Shown: positions 4,765 through 23,626, numbered from the stretch's first letter. The stretch is 64,000 bases of DNA from Bacillota bacterium (GCA_021791495.1 JAJYWN010000011.1:1015-65014), one strand, 5' to 3'. A program made the numbers and translations. The notes: generated from the sequence alone by a model not told the origin.

Positions 4765-5781
4765 TTACTGTTCATTATCCGGCAGGCTCACGCGACCGTC
4801 AAGGGAAAGGCGCGGAACGACGCCTTCTACCAGCCTGATGAAGGAGTAGTAGCGCTGCAGGACCCCCGCCACCGCCAAAGGGCGCCCCCACCACGGCAGG
4901 CCCAGGCCCCGCGACACGAACCCGCCGAGTTTGGCCAGCCAATTGGCGGCTGTCAGGCTGTTGACCATCGTGAGGGAGCCATCGGGTAGTCCATAGGACT
5001 TGACCAAGTCGTTGATGGCGCGCACCAGAATGTGTTTTCCGGTGGCCAGACCGACGATGTACACCTCGCGCCCGTCCCGGTCGTCCCCGATGTAGAACAC
5101 GGTGCCGAGCAGCTTGGCGCTGACACGGTCGAAATGCGGCAAGGCCAGGACTTCCTCCGGCGTCGGTTTGCGCCTGACCGGTAGTTTCCTGGTGTGGATG
5201 GCCGAGGCCACCACCGAGGAGTGAGAACTGCCGTAGCAGTGGTACAGTACTTTCGGCCCCGGACGGGTCGCCAAGGGGGCGGGCGACGGCGATACGCCAC
5301 GTTCTTGGGCTACCCTTGTCAGGCGGCGCTCGACCTCGCCCCGTGTCCGGTCGACGATTCTCTTGATGTTCAAGAATCCCTTGCGGGTCCCCCAAGCCAC
5401 CAGGGGGCGCCCGATGGTAACCAGGCCCAACCCGCGTGACAGGACGCCCCCGAGGCGCATGGCCAGGTTCACGCCGGGGAGGGTGTCCGTCATGACCAAG
5501 TCGTCGTGGGGAATGCCGTAAGCTAAGGCTATCCCCCGGAGGGCCCGGCGGGCGATAGTGTGGTAGCGGCGGCAGCCCAGGACGTAGACCTCGACCCCAG
5601 GCTGGGCGTCGCCGATATACGTCAACCGCCCGTGGTCGGCCGGAGTGGCCTGGTCGAAATGAGGCAGCCGCCTTATTTCCGCCGCAGTGGGACGCCGCTC
5701 ACCGGACAGGGCCCCCGTGTGGAGGGAGGCGGCCAGGACCGATGAATGGGCCCCACCGTAGTCGTAATAAACGACTTTCAA
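4765..5781 (-). CDS. tandem-duplicated DUF3189-like protein (two ~165-aa repeats)
   Basis: Internal repeat: MKVVYYDYGGAHSSVLAA...LPHFDQ...YIGDA / KVLYHCYGSSHSSVVASA...LPHFDR...YIGDD. No known catalytic motif. Confidence 0.6.
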   Translation of the reverse strand: MKVVYYDYGGAHSSVLAASLHTGALSGERRPTAAEIRRLPHFDQATPADHGRLTYIGDAQPGVEVYVLGCRRYHTIARRALRGIALAYGIPHDDLVMTDTLPGVNLAMRLGGVLSRGLGLVTIGRPLVAWGTRKGFLNIKRIVDRTRGEVERRLTRVAQERGVSPSPAPLATRPGPKVLYHCYGSSHSSVVASAIHTRKLPVRRKPTPEEVLALPHFDRVSAKLLGTVFYIGDDRDGREVYIVGLATGKHILVRAINDLVKSYGLPDGSLTMVNSLTAANWLAKLGGFVSRGLGLPWWGRPLAVAGVLQRYYSFIRLVEGVVPRLSLDGRVSLPDNEQ

Positions 5782-5783
5782 GG

Positions 5784-7046
5784 TTACCTCACGGGCTGAC
5801 GGTTGCGTTTCCGCCGCCGGAAAGGCCGGCGACCGTCACTGGTGCCCTCGCCGGTGCTTTCTCGTCTCCCCGCCAGCGCCCGGCCTCTGGCCCAGCGGAA
5901 CCGGCCGAAGAAGCTGGCCATCTCCGTGGACCACAGCTGCCGGAGCTTCTGGCGGGCCTCCGGCCAGTTGCCGGCATTGATGAACAGGAAAGCCGCCCCG
6001 CCCACCAGGACGAGCCCGAGGATCCAGGCCAGGGCAGTCAGAAAGCCCGTGTTCTGCATGGCAGCTCCGCCGCCCAGGGAACTGCCGGTGCTTTGGCCCT
6101 TCAGGAAGCTGGGCAGGGTCTGCCCGACGAAGGTGGCCGCCTGTTCGGCTTCGGCTTTGGGGTTATTCTCGCCCCCAAACTCCAGCAGGAGCGCCCGCGG
6201 GTAAAGGTCCTGGTTGTACTTGCCCACGGCCATGAAAATGCCCTTGACCAGGCCGGGGAATTTCTGGTCCAGCGCTGCTTTCAAGCTCTTGGCGACGCCA
6301 AGGTTCGCGCTCTCGGTGGGGTTGCCGCGGCCCACCACGATCATGACTTTGGTGACCAAGGCGTCGGCCACGGTCGTCTCGTAGGCCGACACGGGCGCGC
6401 TATCGCGGTGGACGTCCAATAGCAGCGTGGGCCGCTTCTTCAGCAGCTGCGTGGCGGTCCGCTTGGACCGGTCGTAGGCGGCGGCGTCGTGGGGGTTGTG
6501 CAGCGCCGGGTCCTGCGTCGCATCCAACCCGCCCTTCTTAGCCGCCAAAGCCAGGGCGGTCCCCACGGCATAGATACCGCCGTGTCCGTCGATACTCGAA
6601 GTACCGTCCCCCGGGATGTAGGATTCGTCACTATGGGTGTGATAGATGGCCACCAAAGGCTTTCCGCCGCTGGTCTGGGCGGACACGGCCTCGGGTGCGG
6701 CTCCCGCATAACCGGTCCCGGTGAGGCCCGCCTCGACCGGCTCCCGTCCGACCTCACGGGCGCGGGCGCGCAGGCCGATGACCTCGAAGACCTCGAACCT
6801 CCGGTTATCACTGTCGATGAAGACATCCCCGACGTTGACGTAGAGGCCTGTCTGCAGGATCACCCGGCCGGACTCGTCCTCGACCGTGTAGTACTGTCTG
6901 GGCAGCTCTTCCTGGCCAAAAGGAGGGGCCGTGGCGGCGCCGGCGGCGGGTCCCCCGGCCAACATCAGACCCACTGTGACCGTCAGCGTCACGGACATGG
7001 CCAAACGAGCCCACACAGCCCACCGGGGGTTACTCATTCTCTTCAC
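5784..7046 (-). CDS. spoIIP: stage II sporulation protein P (SpoIIP amidase family)
   Basis: Signal/TM N-terminus; conserved IYHTHSDESY and LLLDVHRD blocks typical of SpoIIP. Confidence 0.85.
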   Translation of the reverse strand: MKRMSNPRWAVWARLAMSVTLTVTVGLMLAGGPAAGAATAPPFGQEELPRQYYTVEDESGRVILQTGLYVNVGDVFIDSDNRRFEVFEVIGLRARAREVGREPVEAGLTGTGYAGAAPEAVSAQTSGGKPLVAIYHTHSDESYIPGDGTSSIDGHGGIYAVGTALALAAKKGGLDATQDPALHNPHDAAAYDRSKRTATQLLKKRPTLLLDVHRDSAPVSAYETTVADALVTKVMIVVGRGNPTESANLGVAKSLKAALDQKFPGLVKGIFMAVGKYNQDLYPRALLLEFGGENNPKAEAEQAATFVGQTLPSFLKGQSTGSSLGGGAAMQNTGFLTALAWILGLVLVGGAAFLFINAGNWPEARQKLRQLWSTEMASFFGRFRWARGRALAGRRESTGEGTSDGRRPFRRRKRNRQPVR

Positions 7047-7770
7047 CGTCCTTGGGAGGCCGGTTGCGTTTGCGGTGCCGGTGTTCCCGGCCCGGCTGGG
7101 AACCGGGTTGGGCTAGCTCGTCGCGGGAAGGATCGCCGCCGCGTTTCTGCTGTGGGCCCCCTTGCAGGCGTTCGCGTGTCTCGCCGATGACTTCGGCCAG
7201 GAAGACGGCCAGCAGACCCGCGATGATAGTGGTGTCGAAGGCGCCGGCTCCACCCAGCCACGTCCGTCCAGGGGACCTGGTCACCAGGAGCTGGACGTAG
7301 TGAGCCAGGTCCGCCAGGATCACTCCCAGCACGCCTGCCACGAAGGCGCCGCGCCGGGAGCGCCCGAAGAGGTAAGCCACCAGCCCGCCGGCAATGGCGT
7401 AGACATAGGTGGGGTCGATGTAGGCCCGCTCCTCGGGTCCGGCGGGCATGAGACGCCCGGCAGCGTAGATGGCCGCACCGGTCACCACCGCCCCCAAGGT
7501 GCCGCGGACTTTCTCCCACGTCGTGTCGGCGGTGACGATCAGCCAGATCGCCAGAACAGCCGGGACGATGGCGCCACCGACGTTTACGAGTAACCGCATT
7601 GGTCCCGGCACCAGAGTCACGTCCAAGAAACTGCCGACAATGATCAGGGCGATGACACCCAGGGCGGCCCGGTCGGTGAGACGCATCCGGTCCAGGACTC
7701 TTTCGGCCAAGCCGAAATAGATCAGGACCGCGACCACGATCAAGAGGATCAACCCGATGGGCAAAGGCAA
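7030..7770 (-). CDS. polytopic membrane protein (DUF1614-like, tentative)
   Basis: 246 aa with about 6 hydrophobic helices and a charged C-tail. The family assignment is from memory and tentative. Confidence 0.5.
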   Translation of the reverse strand: MPLPIGLILLIVVAVLIYFGLAERVLDRMRLTDRAALGVIALIIVGSFLDVTLVPGPMRLLVNVGGAIVPAVLAIWLIVTADTTWEKVRGTLGAVVTGAAIYAAGRLMPAGPEERAYIDPTYVYAIAGGLVAYLFGRSRRGAFVAGVLGVILADLAHYVQLLVTRSPGRTWLGGAGAFDTTIIAGLLAVFLAEVIGETRERLQGGPQQKRGGDPSRDELAQPGSQPGREHRHRKRNRPPKDGEENE

Positions 7771-7862
7771 GGGACCTACCTCCCTAAAAACCGGTGTGCG
7801 CTTCCCAAAAAACGCAGGGAATCGCAGGTTTAGGTTAACCCGGTCCCAGGGTGATAATTCGG

Positions 7863-9053
7863 CTAGCTTTGGGTATTGCGCCGTCCGCGCGCCGCCGCCC
7901 AGTCCCGCGCCAGACCGCTCAGGACCACGGGTAGGTAGGCCGCCGGACCCACGCCGGCGGCCCCCGACAGCAGCAGGACTTCCCTGATCTGGTCCAGGAA
8001 GCCGCGAAGGTAAACTTCCGCACCCCGGGGGCCGCCGGCGTCAAGGGCCCTCAAGAGGGGCGCGGCCACGGAGACAGCCTTGGCTCCCAAGGCGAAGGCT
8101 TTCACCGCATCCAGTCCGGAACGGATCCCGCCGCCGGCCACCACGTCTAGGCCGCTGCCGGCGACCTCCAGAAGAGAGATGGCCGTCGGGAGCCCCCAAC
8201 TGTAGTGCGCCGGCCGGTGTTCCGACTCCCTGCCCCCAGCCCGCCCGGCGGCTCCCCCGGTCTCCCCGCCCGGCGCCAGACGTCTGGCCGCGGCGCGGCG
8301 GCGTTCCACGTCGCGGAAATCTGTGCCGCCCGCTCCACCCACGTCGATGGCGGCCACGCCGGCTTCCTTCAAGCGGCGGGCGTGCTCCCGGGCGATGCCG
8401 GCCCCGACCTCCTTCACTATTACCGGGAAAGGCACCGCCGCGCAAACGCGCTCGATGGCCGCCAACCGTCCGCGGAAATCCCGGTCGCCTTCAGGCATGG
8501 CCAATTCCTGGGCGGCGTTCAGGTGGAGCTGCAGGGCATCGGCGTGCAGGACATCCGCCGCCCGTTTGGCGTCGTCAGGGGACGAACCGGCGGGCAGATT
8601 GGCAAAGATGATGCCGTGGGGGTTCTCATCCCGGACTACCGAGAAGGTTGCCAAGGCCTCCGGAGACTCACGGAGAATGGTCTGCGAACCAACGGCGATG
8701 GCCGCGCCGGCCAGCGCGGCGGCGCGCGATAAGGCCCGATTCGCCTCCAGGCCGCGGGCTGTGCCGCCGGTCATGGCGTTGACCACGACGGGTGTGGCCA
8801 AGCGCAGGCCGGCGACGGAAGTCGTCAAGTCAATGGAGGCCAGGTCCAATTCGGGCAGACAGTCAGGTATGAGGTGGACGTCACTGAAATGTGTCGACGG
8901 AAACGAGGACTCAGGCGCGGAAACAGCGCCAGCTTCACCCATGTCCTCAGGAGTCCTGAGTACCGCTTCGAGATGTTCGTCCTTTCTTCGGGCCCGCAGA
9001 CCTAGCTGCTGGTTTGGCGGCGGGTTTGGAGCCCGGCGCCCCGGCGCCATCAT
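7863..9053 (-). CDS. fni: type 2 isopentenyl-diphosphate delta-isomerase (FMN-dependent IDI-2)
   Basis: RKDEHL near the N-terminus, NAMTGG, IVKEVGAGI and GGTDF blocks as in B. subtilis Fni. The start is uncertain (Met at ~9053 or a later TTG/CTG). The 5' end overlaps the topA 3' end. There is a low-complexity insertion (AAARRLAPGGETGGAAGRAGGRESEH). Confidence 0.82.
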   Translation of the reverse strand: MMAPGRRAPNPPPNQQLGLRARRKDEHLEAVLRTPEDMGEAGAVSAPESSFPSTHFSDVHLIPDCLPELDLASIDLTTSVAGLRLATPVVVNAMTGGTARGLEANRALSRAAALAGAAIAVGSQTILRESPEALATFSVVRDENPHGIIFANLPAGSSPDDAKRAADVLHADALQLHLNAAQELAMPEGDRDFRGRLAAIERVCAAVPFPVIVKEVGAGIAREHARRLKEAGVAAIDVGGAGGTDFRDVERRRAAARRLAPGGETGGAAGRAGGRESEHRPAHYSWGLPTAISLLEVAGSGLDVVAGGGIRSGLDAVKAFALGAKAVSVAAPLLRALDAGGPRGAEVYLRGFLDQIREVLLLSGAAGVGPAAYLPVVLSGLARDWAAARGRRNTQS

Positions 9054-17079: not shown

Positions 17080-18492
17080 CTAACGCGCCTCTCCCTCTCC
17101 TGCTACCAGGAGACGGCCCACCTTATCGACGTCGCCGGCCCCCGCCGTCAGGACCATGTCCCCGGGTGCGACTTTCGAGCGGAGGTAGGCGGCGGCTTCC
17201 TGGTGGCTGGGCATGTGGACCGCGGCCGAACCCAGGTCACGAATGTCGGCGACCAAGTCGGCCGCCTTGACCAAACCGGTGTCTTTCTCCCGGGCCGCGT
17301 AGATGTCCAGGAGCACCGCTTCATCGGCCAGGGCCAGGGCCTTCACGAACTCGTGGCGCGAGTGGAAGGTCCGGCTGAACAGGTGGGGCTGGAAGACCAC
17401 ATACAGCCGCCTGGGTTCGAACCGCCTGGCCGTCTCAATGGTGTAGCGGAGGGCCGTTGGATGGTGGGCGTAGTCGTCGATGACGGTCACCCCGCCCACC
17501 TGACCCAACTGCTCGAATCGCCGGTGTACCCCCTTGAAATCGCGTAAGGAACGGGCGATGTCCTTGACGTCCACTCCCAGCCAGAAACAGGCTGCCGTCG
17601 CCGCCAGGGCATTCTGCACATTGTGGACGCCGGGGGTGCCCAGCTCCATGGGGACCAGGCGCCGGTCCCCGCGCACCAAGTCAAACACCGGGTAGGCCGT
17701 CCCGGGGCGGAACCCGACGGCCGCGGCACGCCAGGTATTGTCCGGGGATAGGCCAAAGGTCTCCACCGGCACCTTGGCGGTTTCGGCCACCCGCCGGGCG
17801 TACTGGTTATCGCCGCTGGTGATGAGCACGCCCCCGGTTTTGATGCGGTCGGCGAAATCACGAAATCCCTGGACCACACCCTCGATGCTCTTAAAGAAAT
17901 CCAGGTGGTCGTCGTCGATGTTCAGGATGAGGCCGACTTCGGGACGGAGGGACAAGAAAGAGTTCTCGAACTCGCAGGCCTCGGTGACCATGTACCGGGT
18001 GGTCCCGATACGGGCGTTGCCGCCCAGGGCCGGCACGTCGCCGCCCACTAAGATGGTGGGATCCAGCCCCGCATCCTTCAGAATGACGCCGATCATGGCG
18101 GTAGTGGTGGTCTTGCCGTGGGTGCCGGCGATAGCCACTCCGTGGTCAGCGCGGGCCAAAACGCGGCCCAGGAGTTCGGCCCGGGACAAGACCGGCAGGC
18201 GCCGCTCGGCCGCGCGCACGGTCTCGGGATGCAGGTCTTTCTTCACCGCGGCGGTGTAGACCACCAGATCGCAGTCGTCCACGTGATCCGCGCTGTGGTC
18301 TTTGACGAAGGAGAGCCCCTTTTCCCGCAGCCGGGCGATGACCGGAGAGTACCTGATGTCGCAGCCGGTCACCTGATGGCCCGCGGCTAAGAGCACTTCC
18401 GCCAAGCCGCTCATACCGGCACCGCCGACCCCGACGAAATGAACTCTTTTCATGTCTCCGTCCAGCGGGGATTCGAGTTTCTCCGGGACCAT
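17080..18492 (-). CDS. murC: UDP-N-acetylmuramate--L-alanine ligase
   Basis: VHFVGVGGAGMSGLAEVL and IAGTHGKTTTTAM Mur-ligase motifs; 470 aa. Confidence 0.92.
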   Translation of the reverse strand: MVPEKLESPLDGDMKRVHFVGVGGAGMSGLAEVLLAAGHQVTGCDIRYSPVIARLREKGLSFVKDHSADHVDDCDLVVYTAAVKKDLHPETVRAAERRLPVLSRAELLGRVLARADHGVAIAGTHGKTTTTAMIGVILKDAGLDPTILVGGDVPALGGNARIGTTRYMVTEACEFENSFLSLRPEVGLILNIDDDHLDFFKSIEGVVQGFRDFADRIKTGGVLITSGDNQYARRVAETAKVPVETFGLSPDNTWRAAAVGFRPGTAYPVFDLVRGDRRLVPMELGTPGVHNVQNALAATAACFWLGVDVKDIARSLRDFKGVHRRFEQLGQVGGVTVIDDYAHHPTALRYTIETARRFEPRRLYVVFQPHLFSRTFHSRHEFVKALALADEAVLLDIYAAREKDTGLVKAADLVADIRDLGSAAVHMPSHQEAAAYLRSKVAPGDMVLTAGAGDVDKVGRLLVAGEGEAR

Positions 18493-18759: not shown

Positions 18760-20151
18760 CTAGAGATGGGTATGCGGCAGGCGCCTGGCCGCCACGGCCC
18801 GCCGGACCACGCGCGGCAGGTCGGCCAGGCCGGCGACATAGAGGCCCTTCGCGCGCAGACGGACGAAAAGCTCCGTGGCCAGACCACCGGTGTAGTCGCG
18901 GACGTCCAGAGGCGAGTTGCCCACGGCGATCACGGGGCGTCCCGATTCCAGGACATCTTGAAGGTTAGCCAGGTTTCCAGGGCCGAAGGGGACGTCGGCC
19001 AAGACGATCGCCGTGGCTGCCGCCATCAGCCGGCGGTTGGCGGCTGAGGCATCCGGGGATACCGGCGAGAAGGGCGGCACCTCGGCTATCTCCAGCCCCA
19101 GGGCGCGGGCTTTCTCCCAGTCCGTGTCAGAAACGTTCAGGACTCCCGTGCTTACCCGCGCGCCTTCCAGGAGGAGCAGGTCGTAGATGGACTGACCGCT
19201 GCCGCCGCCGGCTACGACATGCACACGGAGACCGCCTAACCCGGGGGAACCGTGGGTCACGCCCCCAAGGGTCACGGCGTCTCCTCCACCCTCGTCCGTC
19301 TCAGGGGGGCCGGCAACCACTTCCTCCCACCGCCGTTGCCGCGAGGTATCCGGTAATAATGTGAGCCGGGGGTAGTCGCCCCCCGGACTACGGTCCACCG
19401 CCACCTTGGCGCCGTAGACGGACCTGATGTTAGCGGGGGTCAAGACCTCGCCGGGGCTGCCCATGGCGTAGATCCGCCCTTCTTTCAGGAGGACCAGGAT
19501 GTCGCAGTAGGCCGCGGCCAGGTTTAGGTCGTGGAGGACGGCGATGACCGTCAGGTGGTGCCGCCGGTTCAGGTAACGCACCAGGTCGAGGACTTCCAGC
19601 TGGTGGTTGATATCCAGGTGGGAGGTGGGCTCGTCCAACATCAGTAGCTTCGGTTCCTGGGTCAGGGCCCGCGCCAGGACAGCGCGCTGCCTCTCGCCGC
19701 CCGACAGCTCGGGAAGAGGACGTTCGGCCAACGCCGCCACCTGCGCTTGCTCCATGGCCCGCTCCACGGCCTGGCGGTCGCGGGCGCTTTCCCGGGCCAT
19801 CCGGCCCATGTGTGGATAGCGGCCCATGGCCACGAACTCGCGGACGGTGAATGGAAAACCTACCGCCAGATCCTGCTCCATGACGGCCAATCGCCGGCTG
19901 AGTTCCAGGGGCCGTAGCCCGGCGATGTCCTCACCGTCGAGGCGGACCGTACCACCGTCCCAAGGGCGGACCACCCCCGACAGGACCCGCAGGAGCGTCG
20001 ACTTGCCGGAGGCGTTGGGCCCGATGAGCCCCAGAAACTCACCTTTCAAGGCCGATAGGCTGACATCGTGCAGCACCGCCCGACCCCCGCCATACCCGAA
20101 GGTGACGGAATCGGCCTCCAAGTGAATGGAACTAGCTCTCTCTCCTCTCAT
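18760..20151 (-). CDS. btuD: ABC transporter ATP-binding protein (BtuD/FepC-type) with ~210-aa C-terminal extension of unknown function
   Basis: Walker A GPNASGKSTLL, signature LSGGERQRAVLA, Walker B LLMLDEPTSHLD. The start is an ATG overlapping the permease stop (ATGA). The C-terminal region (RVHVVAGGGSGQ...VIAVGN) is not ABC-like. Confidence 0.8.
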   Translation of the reverse strand: MRGERASSIHLEADSVTFGYGGGRAVLHDVSLSALKGEFLGLIGPNASGKSTLLRVLSGVVRPWDGGTVRLDGEDIAGLRPLELSRRLAVMEQDLAVGFPFTVREFVAMGRYPHMGRMARESARDRQAVERAMEQAQVAALAERPLPELSGGERQRAVLARALTQEPKLLMLDEPTSHLDINHQLEVLDLVRYLNRRHHLTVIAVLHDLNLAAAYCDILVLLKEGRIYAMGSPGEVLTPANIRSVYGAKVAVDRSPGGDYPRLTLLPDTSRQRRWEEVVAGPPETDEGGGDAVTLGGVTHGSPGLGGLRVHVVAGGGSGQSIYDLLLLEGARVSTGVLNVSDTDWEKARALGLEIAEVPPFSPVSPDASAANRRLMAAATAIVLADVPFGPGNLANLQDVLESGRPVIAVGNSPLDVRDYTGGLATELFVRLRAKGLYVAGLADLPRVVRRAVAARRLPHTHL

Positions 20152-21257
20152 ACCCTTGACCGCCTGAGAAGATATAGGAAGAACGGCCCGCCCACGAGGG
20201 CGGTAATGATACCTACCGGGATCTCGGTCGGGGGCAGGATGCACCGGGCCAAAGTGTCGGCGCCCGTAAGCAAGACCGCTCCCCCCAGGGCCGCCGACGG
20301 CAACAGGGACCGGTGATCGGGCCCCAGGGCCGCGCGGACCATGTGCGGGACGACCAGTCCGACGAAGCCGATGATGCCCACCATGGACACCGAGGCGGCC
20401 GTCAAGAGGGAGGCGGTGACCAACACCACCCGCCGCAGTCTTTCGGGGTCGGCCCCCAGGTGCTGTGCGGGTTCATCACCGAGGAGGATGAGGTTCAGGT
20501 CCCGAGCGTAGAAAAGCAGGACGGCGGCACCGGCCAGGACGTAAGGAGCCACCGCGGCCACGTGCGGCCACCCGCGTCCGGCCAGGCTCCCCATGATCCA
20601 GAAGACGATTTCCTTGAGGTCCTGGGAGAAGAAGACTTGCAGTCCGGCCACGATGGCCGCTAGGAAGGAACTGACGGCGACGCCGGCCAAGAGCAGGTTC
20701 GTGACTGGCACCCTGCCGCGGACCCGGGCCAGGTTGAATACCAGGAAAACGGAGCCGATGGCTCCGGCGAAAGCCAGGAGCGGCACGGCTCCGAACCCCA
20801 GGAAGGCGTCCGGCAGGCGGAAGACGATGGCGATGGCGGCCCCCAGGGCCGCTCCGGCCGAGACACCGATAATGTACGGGTCGGCCATGGGGTTGGCGAA
20901 AAGCCCCTGGAAAGCGGTGCCGGCCAAAGCTAAGCCTGCCCCCACCAGCACTCCCAACAGGGCGCGCGGCAGCCGCATGTCCAGGATGATGGTGGCGTCC
21001 ACGTCGGTCCAGTGCGCCGCGGGGAAAAGCCTGCTAACGGTGGCCGCCGGCACACCGATGCCGCGGAGCAGGACTCCGGCTACCGCCGGCAGAGGAATGG
21101 ATACTGCCCCTACCGTCAGAGAAACCACAACTACCAGGGCCAGCAGGCCCCCCAAGATCCAGGGGGCCCGCTTCCTGGCGATCTGACGGCGCCGGGCCGA
21201 GGGGCCGGCGTCGCCGCTGCTACCGGTGGTTATCCCGCCGGTTGCGACTCTGGCCGA
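20148..21257 (-). CDS. btuC: FecCD-family ABC permease (BtuC-like)
   Basis: About 10 TM helices with FecCD blocks (GAALGAAIA..., GIIGFVGLVVPH). The ORF-track N-terminus overlaps the binding-protein gene; the true start is probably the GTG near 21257. Confidence 0.82.
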   Translation of the reverse strand, partial: SARVATGGITTGSSGDAGPSARRRQIARKRAPWILGGLLALVVVVSLTVGAVSIPLPAVAGVLLRGIGVPAATVSRLFPAAHWTDVDATIILDMRLPRALLGVLVGAGLALAGTAFQGLFANPMADPYIIGVSAGAALGAAIAIVFRLPDAFLGFGAVPLLAFAGAIGSVFLVFNLARVRGRVPVTNLLLAGVAVSSFLAAIVAGLQVFFSQDLKEIVFWIMGSLAGRGWPHVAAVAPYVLAGAAVLLFYARDLNLILLGDEPAQHLGADPERLRRVVLVTASLLTAASVSMVGIIGFVGLVVPHMVRAALGPDHRSLLPSAALGGAVLLTGADTLARCILPPTEIPVGIITALVGGPFFLYLLRRSRV

Positions 21258-21261
21258 CACT

Positions 21262-22227
21262 TTACTTGAACTGGTCAGGGTACAGGACTTTGGCCGCTGC
21301 TTCCAAGCCGTCCATAAGGCGCGGACCCGGCCGGGAAACAAGGTCGGGGTTCACCGTGTACACCTTGTTGTTCTTGACCGCCGTGAGCTTGGACCAACCG
21401 TTCAGCTTCTTGACCTTATCCATCGTGTCGGGGGAACTGGAACCGATGACGATGACGTCCGGGTCGTCTTTCAGAAGCGACTCCATACTGTACTGGGAGT
21501 AGGCCTGATTGGTCTTGGTCGCCACGTTGGTTGCTCCCAGCTTCACCAGGATGTCGTTGATGAAGCTCCCCGGCCCCACCGTCCAGAGCTGGTCGTCCAG
21601 CATCCAAAAGACCTTGGGTCGCTTGTCGGCGGCCACCGCGGCCACTTTCGCCAGAACGGCCTTCTCTTTGGCCTGCATCACCCCCACGACTTCCTGGGCT
21701 TTGGCCGCGGTCCCGGTGATCTTCCCCACGAGATTGATCTCGTCGTAGACCGCTGCCAGGCTGGATGCTTGCAAGACGAAGGTCGGCACCTTCAGGCCAT
21801 CGAGCTTCTTTACGATCTCGCTCTGGGCTGTGCCTACCGCCAGCACCAGGTCGGGCTTGAGGCCTACGATCTTCTCGTAGTTGGGGTTGAAAGCGTCGCC
21901 CACCTTCTCTTTCTTCGTCGCTTCGGGCGGGAAGTTATCGAAATTGCTGACGCCGAAGACCTTGTCGCCCAGACCCAAGGCGAAGAGAATCTCGGTGTTA
22001 CTGGGGGCCATAGATACCAGGCGCTGCGGGCGCGTGGCCAGCTTGACTTCACGCCCCGCCTCGTCTTTCAGGGTCATCGGGAAACCGGCCTTACGGTCGG
22101 CCCGGACCTCTTTCGAGAGGAAGCAGCCAGACACCGAAACCGCGGTCAAGGAAGCCAGCAAGGCCGCCACCACGACCGCCTTCCACCTACTCGTCCGTCG
22201 AATGCTCAGTCGCACGGTTTGAAACAC
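21262..22227 (-). CDS. btuF: periplasmic-binding-protein lipoprotein of a B12/Fe-siderophore ABC transporter (BtuF-like)
   Basis: Lipoprotein signal (...AVSVSGC) and a class III PBP fold (KPDLVLAV..., VIVIGS). Immediately downstream of a cobalamin riboswitch. Confidence 0.8.
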   Translation of the reverse strand: MFQTVRLSIRRTSRWKAVVVAALLASLTAVSVSGCFLSKEVRADRKAGFPMTLKDEAGREVKLATRPQRLVSMAPSNTEILFALGLGDKVFGVSNFDNFPPEATKKEKVGDAFNPNYEKIVGLKPDLVLAVGTAQSEIVKKLDGLKVPTFVLQASSLAAVYDEINLVGKITGTAAKAQEVVGVMQAKEKAVLAKVAAVAADKRPKVFWMLDDQLWTVGPGSFINDILVKLGATNVATKTNQAYSQYSMESLLKDDPDVIVIGSSSPDTMDKVKKLNGWSKLTAVKNNKVYTVNPDLVSRPGPRLMDGLEAAAKVLYPDQFK

Positions 22228-22339
22228 CTCCGGAAAATGATCGAGCCCCGGCCTGTACGGTCCGGGGCTTGCTTGCTCTGGCTGGAGCGGCCCGTTAGAA
22301 AGCCGCCCGCCGCACCCCCCTTTCCGACGAAGGTCAAGT

Positions 22340-22520
22340 GTGCTTCCCGAAACGGGCAGGTCTCCTGGCTTCCGTTCTTCCTCCCCGCGCCTTCCCGCCG
22401 GCTGGGCCGGCAGTGGCTAGAGCGGTTCGTCGCGGTTACAGTGGCGGGACCGCGCCGGCTTAGGACCGCGCTCTTCGCGCCAAACGGTCCTCACCGGACT
22501 TCCCTATTATCCCCGCCCCC
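22340..22520 (-). promoter_or_regulatory. cobalamin (B12) riboswitch upstream of btuFCD
   Basis: Minus strand reads AUAAUAGGGAAGUCCGGUGAGGACC ... GCCACUGUAA ... GCCACUGCC ... GGGAAGG ... AGCCAGGAGACCUGCCC. The last segment matches the B12 box (compare E. coli btuB AGCCCGAAGACCUGCC). Position is 5' of the binding-protein gene. Confidence 0.8.
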
Positions 22521-22588
22521 TTCACTAGGGGCGGGGCACCCGTTTCCTTAGAATAACGCTATTCGGTTTTCACTATCCAGTATAGCGG

Positions 22589-23626
22589 CTATTCGCTCCT
22601 CTTCGCAAGCTGGCATTTCGCCGGGTCCAACTGGTCGCAGTCCTCGCAGGTGATGGCGCACGGTTCCAAGTGGATGACGATGGACGACCGGGGGAAGGCC
22701 TGTTTCACGTCTTGTTCGATGTGCTCGGCCACGTCGTGAGCGTCCACCAGGGACCGCGAGCGGTGGAAGACCATATGCAGGTCCACGTGGACCTCCCCTC
22801 CGGCCTTGCGCGTGCGCAGCTTATGAACCCCCACATAGCGGTCGGCGTGGTCCTTGATGATGCCTTCGATGACCTTCTCCTCGGCCTCCGGTAAGCGCGC
22901 ATCCAAGAGGGGCGCGAAGGCCTCCTCGGTGAGTTCCCAGGCGGCCCGGATGATCAGGGCGGCCACGACGATGGCGGCGATGGGGTCTAGGATGGGCAGG
23001 TGCGTGAAGTGGATCAGGGCCAAGCCCACGAAGACACCCACCGAAGTCCAGACGTCGGTGCTGAGATGGATGGCGTCGGCTTTCAGGGCCACCGAGTCGA
23101 GCCGGACCGCGGTGCGCATCAGAAAGCGCGAAACGAAGATGTTCACGATGCTAGAGGTCCCCATGACCGCCATGCCCAGCACCAGGGACTCCACATGCGC
23201 GCCGTGGATCAGCTTCCGGATGGCTTCCAGCAGGATCCAGGCGGCGGCGAAGAAGATGAGGACCGCCTCGACGACGCCGGACACGTTCTCGATTTTTCCG
23301 TGGCCATATTGGTGTCGCTCATCCGCGGGACGGGAAGCCTGCCGCAAGGAAAAGAAGGCGATGGCGGCGGCCAGGAGGTCCAAGCCGGAGTGGATGGCTT
23401 CCGAAAGGACGCTGACCGATCCCATGGTGATCCCGACCACGGTCTTCATGATGACCAGGGATATGTTAGAGATAACCGAGACTCCGGCTGCTCTGACACG
23501 AGGGTCCTCTAGGAACAACAACCCGATCTCTCCTTGTGGGCGGCGTTTATGGGAAACCGCGGGCAACAAAAATGGGACGGCACGATGTGACGTCCCACGG
23601 GTTTCAGTTTTTCCCGCTGCCGGCAA
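22589..23626 (-). CDS. cation diffusion facilitator (CDF) family metal efflux transporter
   Basis: Six TM helices with HxxxD motifs (SEAIHSGLD, HLSTDVWTS), a C-terminal cytoplasmic domain and a Cys/His tail; 345 aa. Confidence 0.85.
   Translation of the reverse strand: MPAAGKTETRGTSHRAVPFLLPAVSHKRRPQGEIGLLFLEDPRVRAAGVSVISNISLVIMKTVVGITMGSVSVLSEAIHSGLDLLAAAIAFFSLRQASRPADERHQYGHGKIENVSGVVEAVLIFFAAAWILLEAIRKLIHGAHVESLVLGMAVMGTSSIVNIFVSRFLMRTAVRLDSVALKADAIHLSTDVWTSVGVFVGLALIHFTHLPILDPIAAIVVAALIIRAAWELTEEAFAPLLDARLPEAEEKVIEGIIKDHADRYVGVHKLRTRKAGGEVHVDLHMVFHRSRSLVDAHDVAEHIEQDVKQAFPRSSIVIHLEPCAITCEDCDQLDPAKCQLAKRSE

Follow-up and report, generated by a model that had tools for sequence, protein, structure and literature searches.

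The BtuD ATPase of a cobalamin-riboswitch-controlled btuFCD locus in a Bacillota bacterium carries a Rossmann-like C-terminal domain of the MJ0874 family

Why does the ATPase of a putative vitamin B12 importer carry a second folded domain behind its ATP-binding cassette (ABC), and what could that domain do? The question is raised by a btuF-btuC-btuD locus on a 64,000-nt stretch of DNA from a Bacillota bacterium (GCA_021791495.1 JAJYWN010000011.1:1015-65014, hereafter the window), in which every feature of the locus lies on the minus strand. The locus is well supported as a cobalamin-riboswitch-controlled type II ABC importer, composed of a BtuF lipoprotein, a BtuC permease and a BtuD ATPase, and its substrate is probably a corrinoid, to judge from the riboswitch and from the best matches of permease and ATPase, PRK09535 and PRK09536. 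An initial annotation, made from the sequence alone, had implied that the long BtuD tail was an unusual architecture. By sequence comparison, the fusion of BtuD to a domain of the Pfam family PF27219 ('MJ0874') is instead the standard architecture of a large and phylogenetically broad BtuD subfamily that spans Bacillota, Actinomycetota, the Planctomycetes-Verrucomicrobia-Chlamydiae (PVC) phyla and Euryarchaeota, and a tail of the PF27219/PRK09536 type is the norm there. The family is already catalogued and the operon is a textbook one, with the window gene as a new member.

BtuD divides into a cassette, a linker and a folded tail domain. The Pfam ABC_tran match (E 6.4e-30) and the HmuV-type NCBIfam model (261 positions) both end at residue 262 of 463, giving a cassette of residues 1-262 (19366..20151), and the alignments to the best sequence relatives in the PDB, FhuC (7lb8) and HmuV (4g1u and 5b57), are limited to residues 22-265. 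With Foldseek, the nucleotide-binding domain (NBD) matched HmuV (4g1u) with a target-normalised template-modelling score (TMt) of 0.90 at 42% identity and BtuD (4dbl) with a TMt of 0.87, and FhuC was also matched. The 201 residues past the cassette consist of a 45-aa linker (residues 263-307, 19231..19365), delimited by the predicted local distance difference test (pLDDT) and by homologue spacing, and a 156-aa domain (residues 308-463, 18763..19230), which is followed by the stop codon at 18760-18762. The tail put forward in the initial annotation, about 210 aa of a 494-aa protein, is real at 201 aa, whereas the protein itself measures 463 aa and only 156 aa of the tail are folded, the rest being linker.

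AlphaFold modelled the last 166 residues (15 sequences) as six alternating beta-alpha units with a pLDDT of 91.6 and a predicted template-modelling score (pTM) of 0.88, in agreement with the Rossmann-like beta-alpha pattern that had been read from the sequence, and the motifs quoted for that pattern, RVHVVAGGGSGQ, IVLADVPFGPGN and VIAVGN, are present in BtuD. The model of full-length BtuD (51 sequences; pLDDT 90.7, pTM 0.74) is confident within each domain, and residues 289-301, with a pLDDT <50, form a disordered stretch between the two folded parts. In the linker, a short helix leads into a low-complexity segment, PPETDEGGGDAVTLGGVTHGSPGLGG, of ~30 aa that is predicted to be disordered. From the Tyr of the VYG motif to the first His of the domain there are 64 residues in BtuD versus a median of 35 in 51 homologues, which makes this linker ~30 residues longer than usual; the low-complexity insert is common only to the closest relatives (P0165, P0239 and P0030), and the typical homologue has a short linker of ~12-15 aa after the ABC tail. 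Collectively, the tail is well supported as an autonomous, conserved Rossmann-like alpha/beta domain on a flexible linker.

The length of 463 aa follows from the choice of start codon. The full btuD open reading frame (ORF) covers 18760..20244, and a candidate ATG start at 20151 shares the four bases ATGA with the btuC stop. An independent public assembly (contig L048) has the same order of a cation diffusion facilitator (CDF) cation-efflux gene, btuF, btuC and btuD, and encodes a BtuD (P0164) 100% identical to that of the window; its automatic call starts btuD at GTG 20076, 25 codons later (438 aa), which would remove NBD strand 1, a strand predicted with a pLDDT >90. Because ATG 20151 overlaps the btuC stop and retains this strand it is preferred, and it is most likely the true start, giving the 463-aa protein (18760..20151).

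Membership in PF27219 was taken from the precomputed assignment on the identical protein, and the Pfam copy used for scanning predates this family. The assignment is present on P0164 and on L048, and domain-only searches returned proteins that carried it without exception (14 of 14 and 44 of 44); against the Pfam copy without PF27219, the extension had no match at E<=10. In NCBIfam, the best match of whole BtuD was PRK09536 (NF007082; 336.1 bits, profile positions 14-350 of 402). The equivalog cutoff of 537 bits was not reached by BtuD, which by this sequence score is a member of a related subfamily and not a PRK09536 equivalog. The extension alone aligned to PRK09536 positions 268-350 (E 2.7e-11), so the curated archaeal corrinoid-ATPase model already includes the MJ0874 domain. 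In the literature, nothing was found on PF27219/MJ0874, on a BtuD C-terminal extension or on a btuD-cbiR fusion.

The size of the family was determined by a profile search with the domain that was exhaustive over 1.84 billion representatives, and 1320 clusters were found at E<=1e-3, 801 at E<=1e-10 and 333 at E<=1e-30. Family proteins are typically 410-440 aa long and carry the domain at residues ~210-420. When full-length BtuD was used as the query, most of the closest relatives (~412-460 aa) consisted of PF00005 plus PF27219; they include proteins of the cultured Desulfolucanica intricata, Acetohalobium arabaticum, Sporohalobacter salinus and Ca. Contubernalis alkaliaceticus as well as of archaeal metagenome-assembled genomes (MAGs), and they are usually annotated as 'heme', 'iron complex' or 'cobalamin' ABC ATP-binding proteins. 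ABC proteins of ~540-560 aa that lack PF27219 and are probably tandem-ABC proteins (P0166, P0169 and others, for example from a Thermaerobacter sp. MAG) were also seen, and these score equal to true orthologues against the NBD.

A genome scan with the motif PFGPGN[LV][ASE]N yielded 47 loci from MAGs of Actinomycetota, Bacillota, Lentisphaerota/Victivallales, Verrucomicrobiota, Armatimonadota, Sumerlaeota and Bacteroidota. The MJ0874 domain stands directly behind the ABC cassette in all 47, and the btuF-btuC-btuD order is retained in every locus with enough DNA. These loci also bear on the possibility that the long ORF is an artefact in which a frameshift, as raised in the initial annotation, or an assembly error has merged btuD with a downstream gene. 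Single disrupted examples could be cited for it, namely a frameshifted copy in L023 and L054/L055, where cassette and domain are called as separate genes. It is effectively refuted by the identical gene on the independent assembly L048, by a single uninterrupted frame in 46 of the 47 loci and by hundreds of full-length homologues of 410-450 aa, and the second ORF of L054 begins with ABC-tail residues, as a broken fusion would.

Genes that encode the domain by itself are a separate matter. The family is named after MJ0874, which presumably is a stand-alone archaeal protein. One genuine stand-alone member was found, P0289 (L051:4001-4414, 137 aa), from a Euryarchaeota MAG (GCA_034660575.1), where it lies between CTP synthase and ATPase genes with no ABC transporter gene within 4 kb. 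Three further candidates (P0002, P0014 and P0286) were rejected, as they start at contig edges, and L054/L055:3086-4528 was rejected as a natural split of ABC and MJ0874 parts and read as a disrupted fusion, given the ABC-tail residues at the start of its second ORF. L054 and L055 carry an archaeal-type btuFCD with an identical break in two assemblies, followed by cobT, cobS and cobY-like genes.

The conservation of the domain points to a specific site. Across 248 full-length domain copies, with at least 28% identity to the window domain (median 39%), six residues are 100% invariant (G8, D35, D37, G83, N86 and D112), nine are kept in at least 98% (H4, G8, G10, G29, D35, D37, G83, N86 and D112), and L19, G23, A41, P53, F54, G85, N89, L90, R111 and G116 are added at a level of at least 90%. 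When placed on the AlphaFold model, the GxG, DxD, PF, GxGN and RD motifs map to the C-terminal ends of strands 1, 2, 3, 4 and 5, and H4 lies inside strand 1 itself. The C-terminal ends of the strands are the usual ligand crevice of Rossmann-type folds. The location of the invariant residues in this crevice speaks against a passive spacer and in favour of a specific site, either catalytic or for a small molecule, and the model suggests that the conserved crevice is a small-molecule site.

This distribution also bears on a purely structural role, in which the domain would be a dimerisation clamp or stabiliser of BtuD, or a docking surface for proteins, with no small-molecule ligand. Precedent exists in the MalK C-terminal domains, which hold the dimer together through the transport cycle (PMC4245157), and such a role agrees with the lack of detectable catalytic family membership. 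We nevertheless regard it as quite improbable: the canonical ligand crevice, and not a flat surface, is where the invariant polar and Gly-rich residues are grouped, and a stand-alone copy exists away from ABC genes.

The fold of the domain was compared with known structures and families. Foldseek against the PDB gave DprA (5mll and 4ljk) as the best fold (E 3e-4, query-normalised score (TMq) 0.55-0.59), with other Rossmann-type nucleotide binders (the PurK N-domain, FtsZ, CoA-transferases and LarB) ranking below it. No match at E<=1e-3 was obtained in the BFVD search of viral predicted structures, in which YpsA-related SLOG, DUF2493 and nucleoside 2-deoxyribosyltransferase-like proteins recurred as weak matches; the Rossmannoids of the SLOG class either bind nucleotides and small ligands or act in nucleotide processing (PMC6459960). 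A Pfam scan of 55 diverse members found F420_oxidored in 10 (weak, best E 0.0014) and LDcluster4 in one (E 0.055). The F420_oxidored matches cover the first beta-alpha-beta unit, as does a weak profile match (E 0.064) to the ketol-acid reductoisomerase (KARI) 4kqx. The consensus has a GxGxG loop and a DxD motif after strand 2, and the matches to hidden Markov models (HMMs) of NAD(P) families are weak and local. Sequence and profile searches of the PDB with the domain gave noise-level matches only (haloalkylphosphorus hydrolase, 2-deoxyribosyltransferase, KARI and topoisomerase I). The topoisomerase I relationship was dropped, as the match lies outside the Toprim domain, and CbiX-type chelatase halves and the HAD, Toprim and PIN folds, considered from motifs, had no sequence or fold match.

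Several relationships that would have been expected of a corrinoid or regulatory domain were searched for specifically. The initial annotation had named CbiZ and CobW as possible relatives, and this suggestion found no support: neither matched the window domain at E<=10, nor did either occur among the best 25 of 36 families detected across the 55 members scanned. For the B12-binding domain of the PF02310 type there was no HMM match and none among the top 50 PDB folds, and the DxHxxG...SxL...GG signature is missing from the consensus. The tail is also not a common ABC regulatory domain such as TOBE: TOBE, MalK-type and MetN-C2 domains gave no Pfam match at E<=10, and the fold is of alternating beta-alpha type, not beta-rich or ACT-like. 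The initial annotation was thus right that the tail is unlike the known ABC regulatory domains, as it has no Pfam match at that threshold, an alpha/beta fold and no solved ABC ATPase that covers it.

These features invite an enzymatic reading, in which the domain would act on the imported corrinoid at its exit from the transporter, either as a nucleotide-loop-directed hydrolase or transferase (which would be a third kind of cobamide remodelling), as a reductase, or as a dealkylase or decyanase with a nucleotide cofactor. Six 100% invariant residues together with the near-invariant H4, G10 and R111, in 248 copies at a median identity of 39%, are typical of active or metal sites; the weak likeness to NAD(P)-binding beta-alpha-beta units would fit the use of a cofactor; and the nearest weak structural class (SLOG, LOG and deoxyribosyltransferase-type proteins) includes enzymes acting on N-glycosidic bonds (PMC6459960). 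The CbiR fusions described below add that processing enzymes have been recruited to the tail position, yet the same fusions would look redundant beside a remodelling domain. No enzyme-family match is significant (all at E>1e-4 or TM<0.6), a domain of 150 aa has little room for corrin plus cofactor, and no conserved Cys or flavin-type motif is found. On balance, an enzymatic role is somewhat unlikely.

The MJ0874 domain is tied to corrinoid transporters. A cobalamin riboswitch was detected with Rfam immediately 5′ of the operon and on the same strand in 27 of the 47 loci. Furthermore, three proteins are triple fusions of BtuD, MJ0874 and CbiR, namely P0027 (694 aa), P0083 (690 aa) and L047:3915-6269, which score 263, 223 and 282 bits, respectively, against the CbiR model NF041277 (cutoff 105). 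In archaeal-type contigs, cobT-cobS-cobY-like or cbiA/cobQ-type genes follow straight after the domain. The suggestion in the initial annotation that the tail may be a corrinoid-processing or regulatory domain is plausible and is strengthened by the triple fusions, as far as sequence can tell. One of the fusions is encoded in a Victivallales MAG, and no literature mention of such proteins was found.

The same associations could be explained if the domain worked as an acceptor or chaperone that captures the corrinoid where it exits BtuC into the cytoplasm and passes the cobamide to an adenosyltransferase, CbiR, CbiZ or the enzymes of nucleotide-loop assembly, leaving the ATPase unregulated. In favour of this, the domain is strictly tied to B12-type transporters, the short typical linker (~12-15 aa) would keep it near the exit, CbiR is fused directly behind it, and some archaeal loci have salvage genes directly downstream. 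Against it, no known B12-binding fold or motif is seen (no DxHxxG, no PF02310 match); the invariant His sits mid-strand and not in a loop able to ligate cobalt; and an enrichment test across 116 downstream ORFs found no conserved downstream partner, the top families being those of a clade-specific two-component system. This role is unlikely, and a little more so than an enzymatic one.

The role that we consider the most likely, while holding it tentatively and taking its mechanism by analogy, is that of a cytoplasmic ligand-sensing or hand-off module. The domain would most likely bind a small phosphate- or nucleotide-bearing ligand, as is indicated by the invariant Gly-rich loops and the acidic and amide residues at the strand ends; candidate ligands are a nucleotide cofactor and the cobamide, the latter held by either its adenosyl group or its nucleotide loop. 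Since BtuD functions as a dimer, a pair of MJ0874 domains hangs beneath the NBDs. The tail occupies the same position as the regulatory domains of MetN, ModC and MalK, which is the basis for assigning it a sensor or hand-off role, and in a cobamide-replete cell such a cytoplasmic sensor would restrain closure of the ATPase, that is, act by trans-inhibition as in MetN and ModC. In addition, the domain may retain the corrinoid as it arrives, to be passed on to salvage enzymes.

Several observations weigh against a sensor or hand-off module. The trans-inhibition mechanism rests on analogy, and the known trans-inhibition domains are found on type I importers and have different folds. The six invariant residues, which include three Asp and one Asn, would suit a catalytic or metal site better than a plain sensor, and HMM and PDB fold searches detected no similarity to any known B12-binding domain. 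In 20 of the 47 loci no riboswitch was found within the DNA available per locus, and the stand-alone homologue P0289 occurs in an unrelated gene context.

A more inclusive proposal, which we put forward with slightly greater reserve, is that MJ0874 is the first accessory domain to be described for type II importers, working either as a cobamide or nucleotide sensor that gates the ATPase from the cytoplasmic side or as a hitherto unrecognised cobamide-processing enzyme coupled directly to import. The significance lies with the MJ0874 family rather than with the window gene, which is a typical member: a large share of the B12 importers of Gram-positive bacteria, the PVC group and archaea bear a cytoplasmic domain that is conserved, has a confidently predicted fold and contains an invariant pocket. 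Were the domain to sense or process cobamides, B12 homeostasis would gain a post-translational layer, and this would help to explain the occasional fusion of CbiR to the transporter. If it is a sensor, trans-inhibition would be layered onto riboswitch control, with the window protein as one ordinary representative.

The genes upstream of btuD complete the importer. btuF, btuC and btuD are co-directional and overlapping or adjacent behind the riboswitch, and together encode the full type II set of a class III substrate-binding protein, a FecCD permease and an ABC ATPase. btuF (21262..22215; Pfam Peripla_BP_2, E 9.5e-40) encodes a class III substrate-binding lipoprotein of 317 aa whose signal peptide ends in ...LTAVSVSGC; its best NCBIfam matches are a PGF-CTERM-anchored substrate-binding protein, IsdE and BtuF, and the gene is called identically on L048. 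btuC (20148..21260; Pfam FecCD, E 8.3e-97) has PRK09535, 'vitamin B12 ABC transporter permease BtuC', as its top NCBIfam match (331 bits; cutoff 461). Its start is uncertain, with a length of 370 aa from GTG 21260 versus 335 aa by the L048 gene caller (start at about 21155); for both btuD and btuC, the upstream in-frame starts (ATG 20151 and GTG 21260) are more likely than the L048 calls. The 3′ neighbour of btuD is murC (17080..18492). No evidence supports a 441-aa ORF that runs on the plus strand at 21226-22551, opposite btuF and the riboswitch; long antisense ORFs of this kind are expected in DNA as GC-rich as that of this region.

The cobalamin riboswitch that the initial annotation had placed ahead of btuF-btuC-btuD was confirmed by the covariance model RF00174, which matched 22338..22558 over its full length (model positions 1-189 of 189) with 103.9 bits (gathering score 31.5; E 6e-25), together with the Pfam matches of the three genes. 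It is the sole Rfam family found in the whole window, and 122 nt separate the 3′ end of the aptamer from the start of btuF, which lies downstream on the same strand. The GC-rich 9-bp palindrome (22511..22536) had been placed between the CDF stop and the riboswitch and interpreted as a terminator and insulator of the CDF gene. In the cmscan alignment, its arms, CCCCGCCCC (22536-22528) and GGGGCGGGG (22519-22511), lie inside the aptamer match and form its first internal hairpin (model positions ~22-45), followed directly by the conserved AUAAUAGGGAA. No T-run follows the arms and the terminator scan has no site there; the palindrome is riboswitch stem P2, not a CDF terminator.

Upstream of the aptamer lies the CDF gene (22589..23626, stop at 22589-22591). 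The 30 nt between this stop and the aptamer contain the -10 element of a promoter-like site, TTGCGA-18 nt-TATACT (22608..22579), which is a consensus match only and was one of 2 sites found in the region versus 0.5 expected. This putative promoter of the riboswitch-btuFCD transcript extends over the stop and the final codons of the CDF gene. The terminator scan found no terminator-like site for the CDF gene itself, so read-through into the riboswitch leader is possible. Between aptamer and btuF, the expression platform (22216..22337) contains a hairpin, AGCCCCGG...CCGGGGCU (22269..22244), present in both the minimum free energy and the centroid structures, then CGAUCAUUUU, and then a ribosome-binding site (RBS), GGAGGUG (22231..22225). 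The fold of this platform is no better than that of shuffled sequence (z -0.79) and its T-tract fails the terminator scan, and we therefore claim neither a terminator nor an RBS-sequestering mechanism.

Other features were seen near btuD in single clades or loci. In Actinomycetota MAG loci (L005-L032 and others, at about 5414-8000, and L049), a conserved two-component system of a histidine kinase and a LuxR-type response regulator lies directly downstream of and convergent with btuD, which looks like clade-specific synteny. An FeS_assembly_P gene lies near btuD in some loci (4 of the 116 downstream ORFs; L049). In a Halanaerobiales MAG (L004:68-1163), 13 tRNA genes stand directly upstream of btuC, in the position occupied elsewhere by btuF and the riboswitch.

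Compared with known systems, the window importer shares with E. coli BtuCD-F, HmuUV, BhuUV, FhuCDB and MolBC the three-component layout and the NBD fold. The ATPases of these solved type II importers differ in ending at ~250-265 aa, none with a C-terminal accessory domain, and their matches cover ~260 of the 463 residues of the window BtuD with a TMq of ~0.5. SLOG/DprA and nucleoside 2-deoxyribosyltransferase-like proteins are the nearest folds to the tail and share Gly-rich loops after strands 1 and 4, whereas TM values stay <0.6, identity is 9-17% and no SLOG family passes any threshold. CbiR, a cobamide-remodelling phosphodiesterase (Mok et al., 2020, PMC7733943), shares the pathway context and is fused behind the MJ0874 domain in the three homologues above, but it is a TIM-barrel belonging to the AP endonuclease 2 superfamily; the window BtuD has no CbiR domain and ends after the MJ0874 domain. 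In MetN and ModC, C-terminal regulatory domains mediate trans-inhibition with the transported substrate as ligand (PMC4245157). The MetN C2, ModC and MalK TOBE-like domains are, like the window tail, attached at the NBD C-terminus with two copies under the dimer; they are beta-rich or ACT-like and belong to type I importers, whereas the window tail is Rossmann-like alpha/beta on a type II importer. The last comparison is with haloarchaeal BtuCDF, the Halobacterium sp. NRC-1 system of Woodson et al. (2005; as cited in PMC5282855). The window system differs in its bacterial, high-GC host, its lipoprotein BtuF and its riboswitch, and its proteins score below the cutoffs (537 and 461) with the last ~50 PRK09536 positions unaligned, but the haloarchaeal models are the best NCBIfam models for both the window ATPase (336 bits) and the permease (331 bits), and PRK09536 covers, with its positions 268-350, the C-terminal domain of the window protein.

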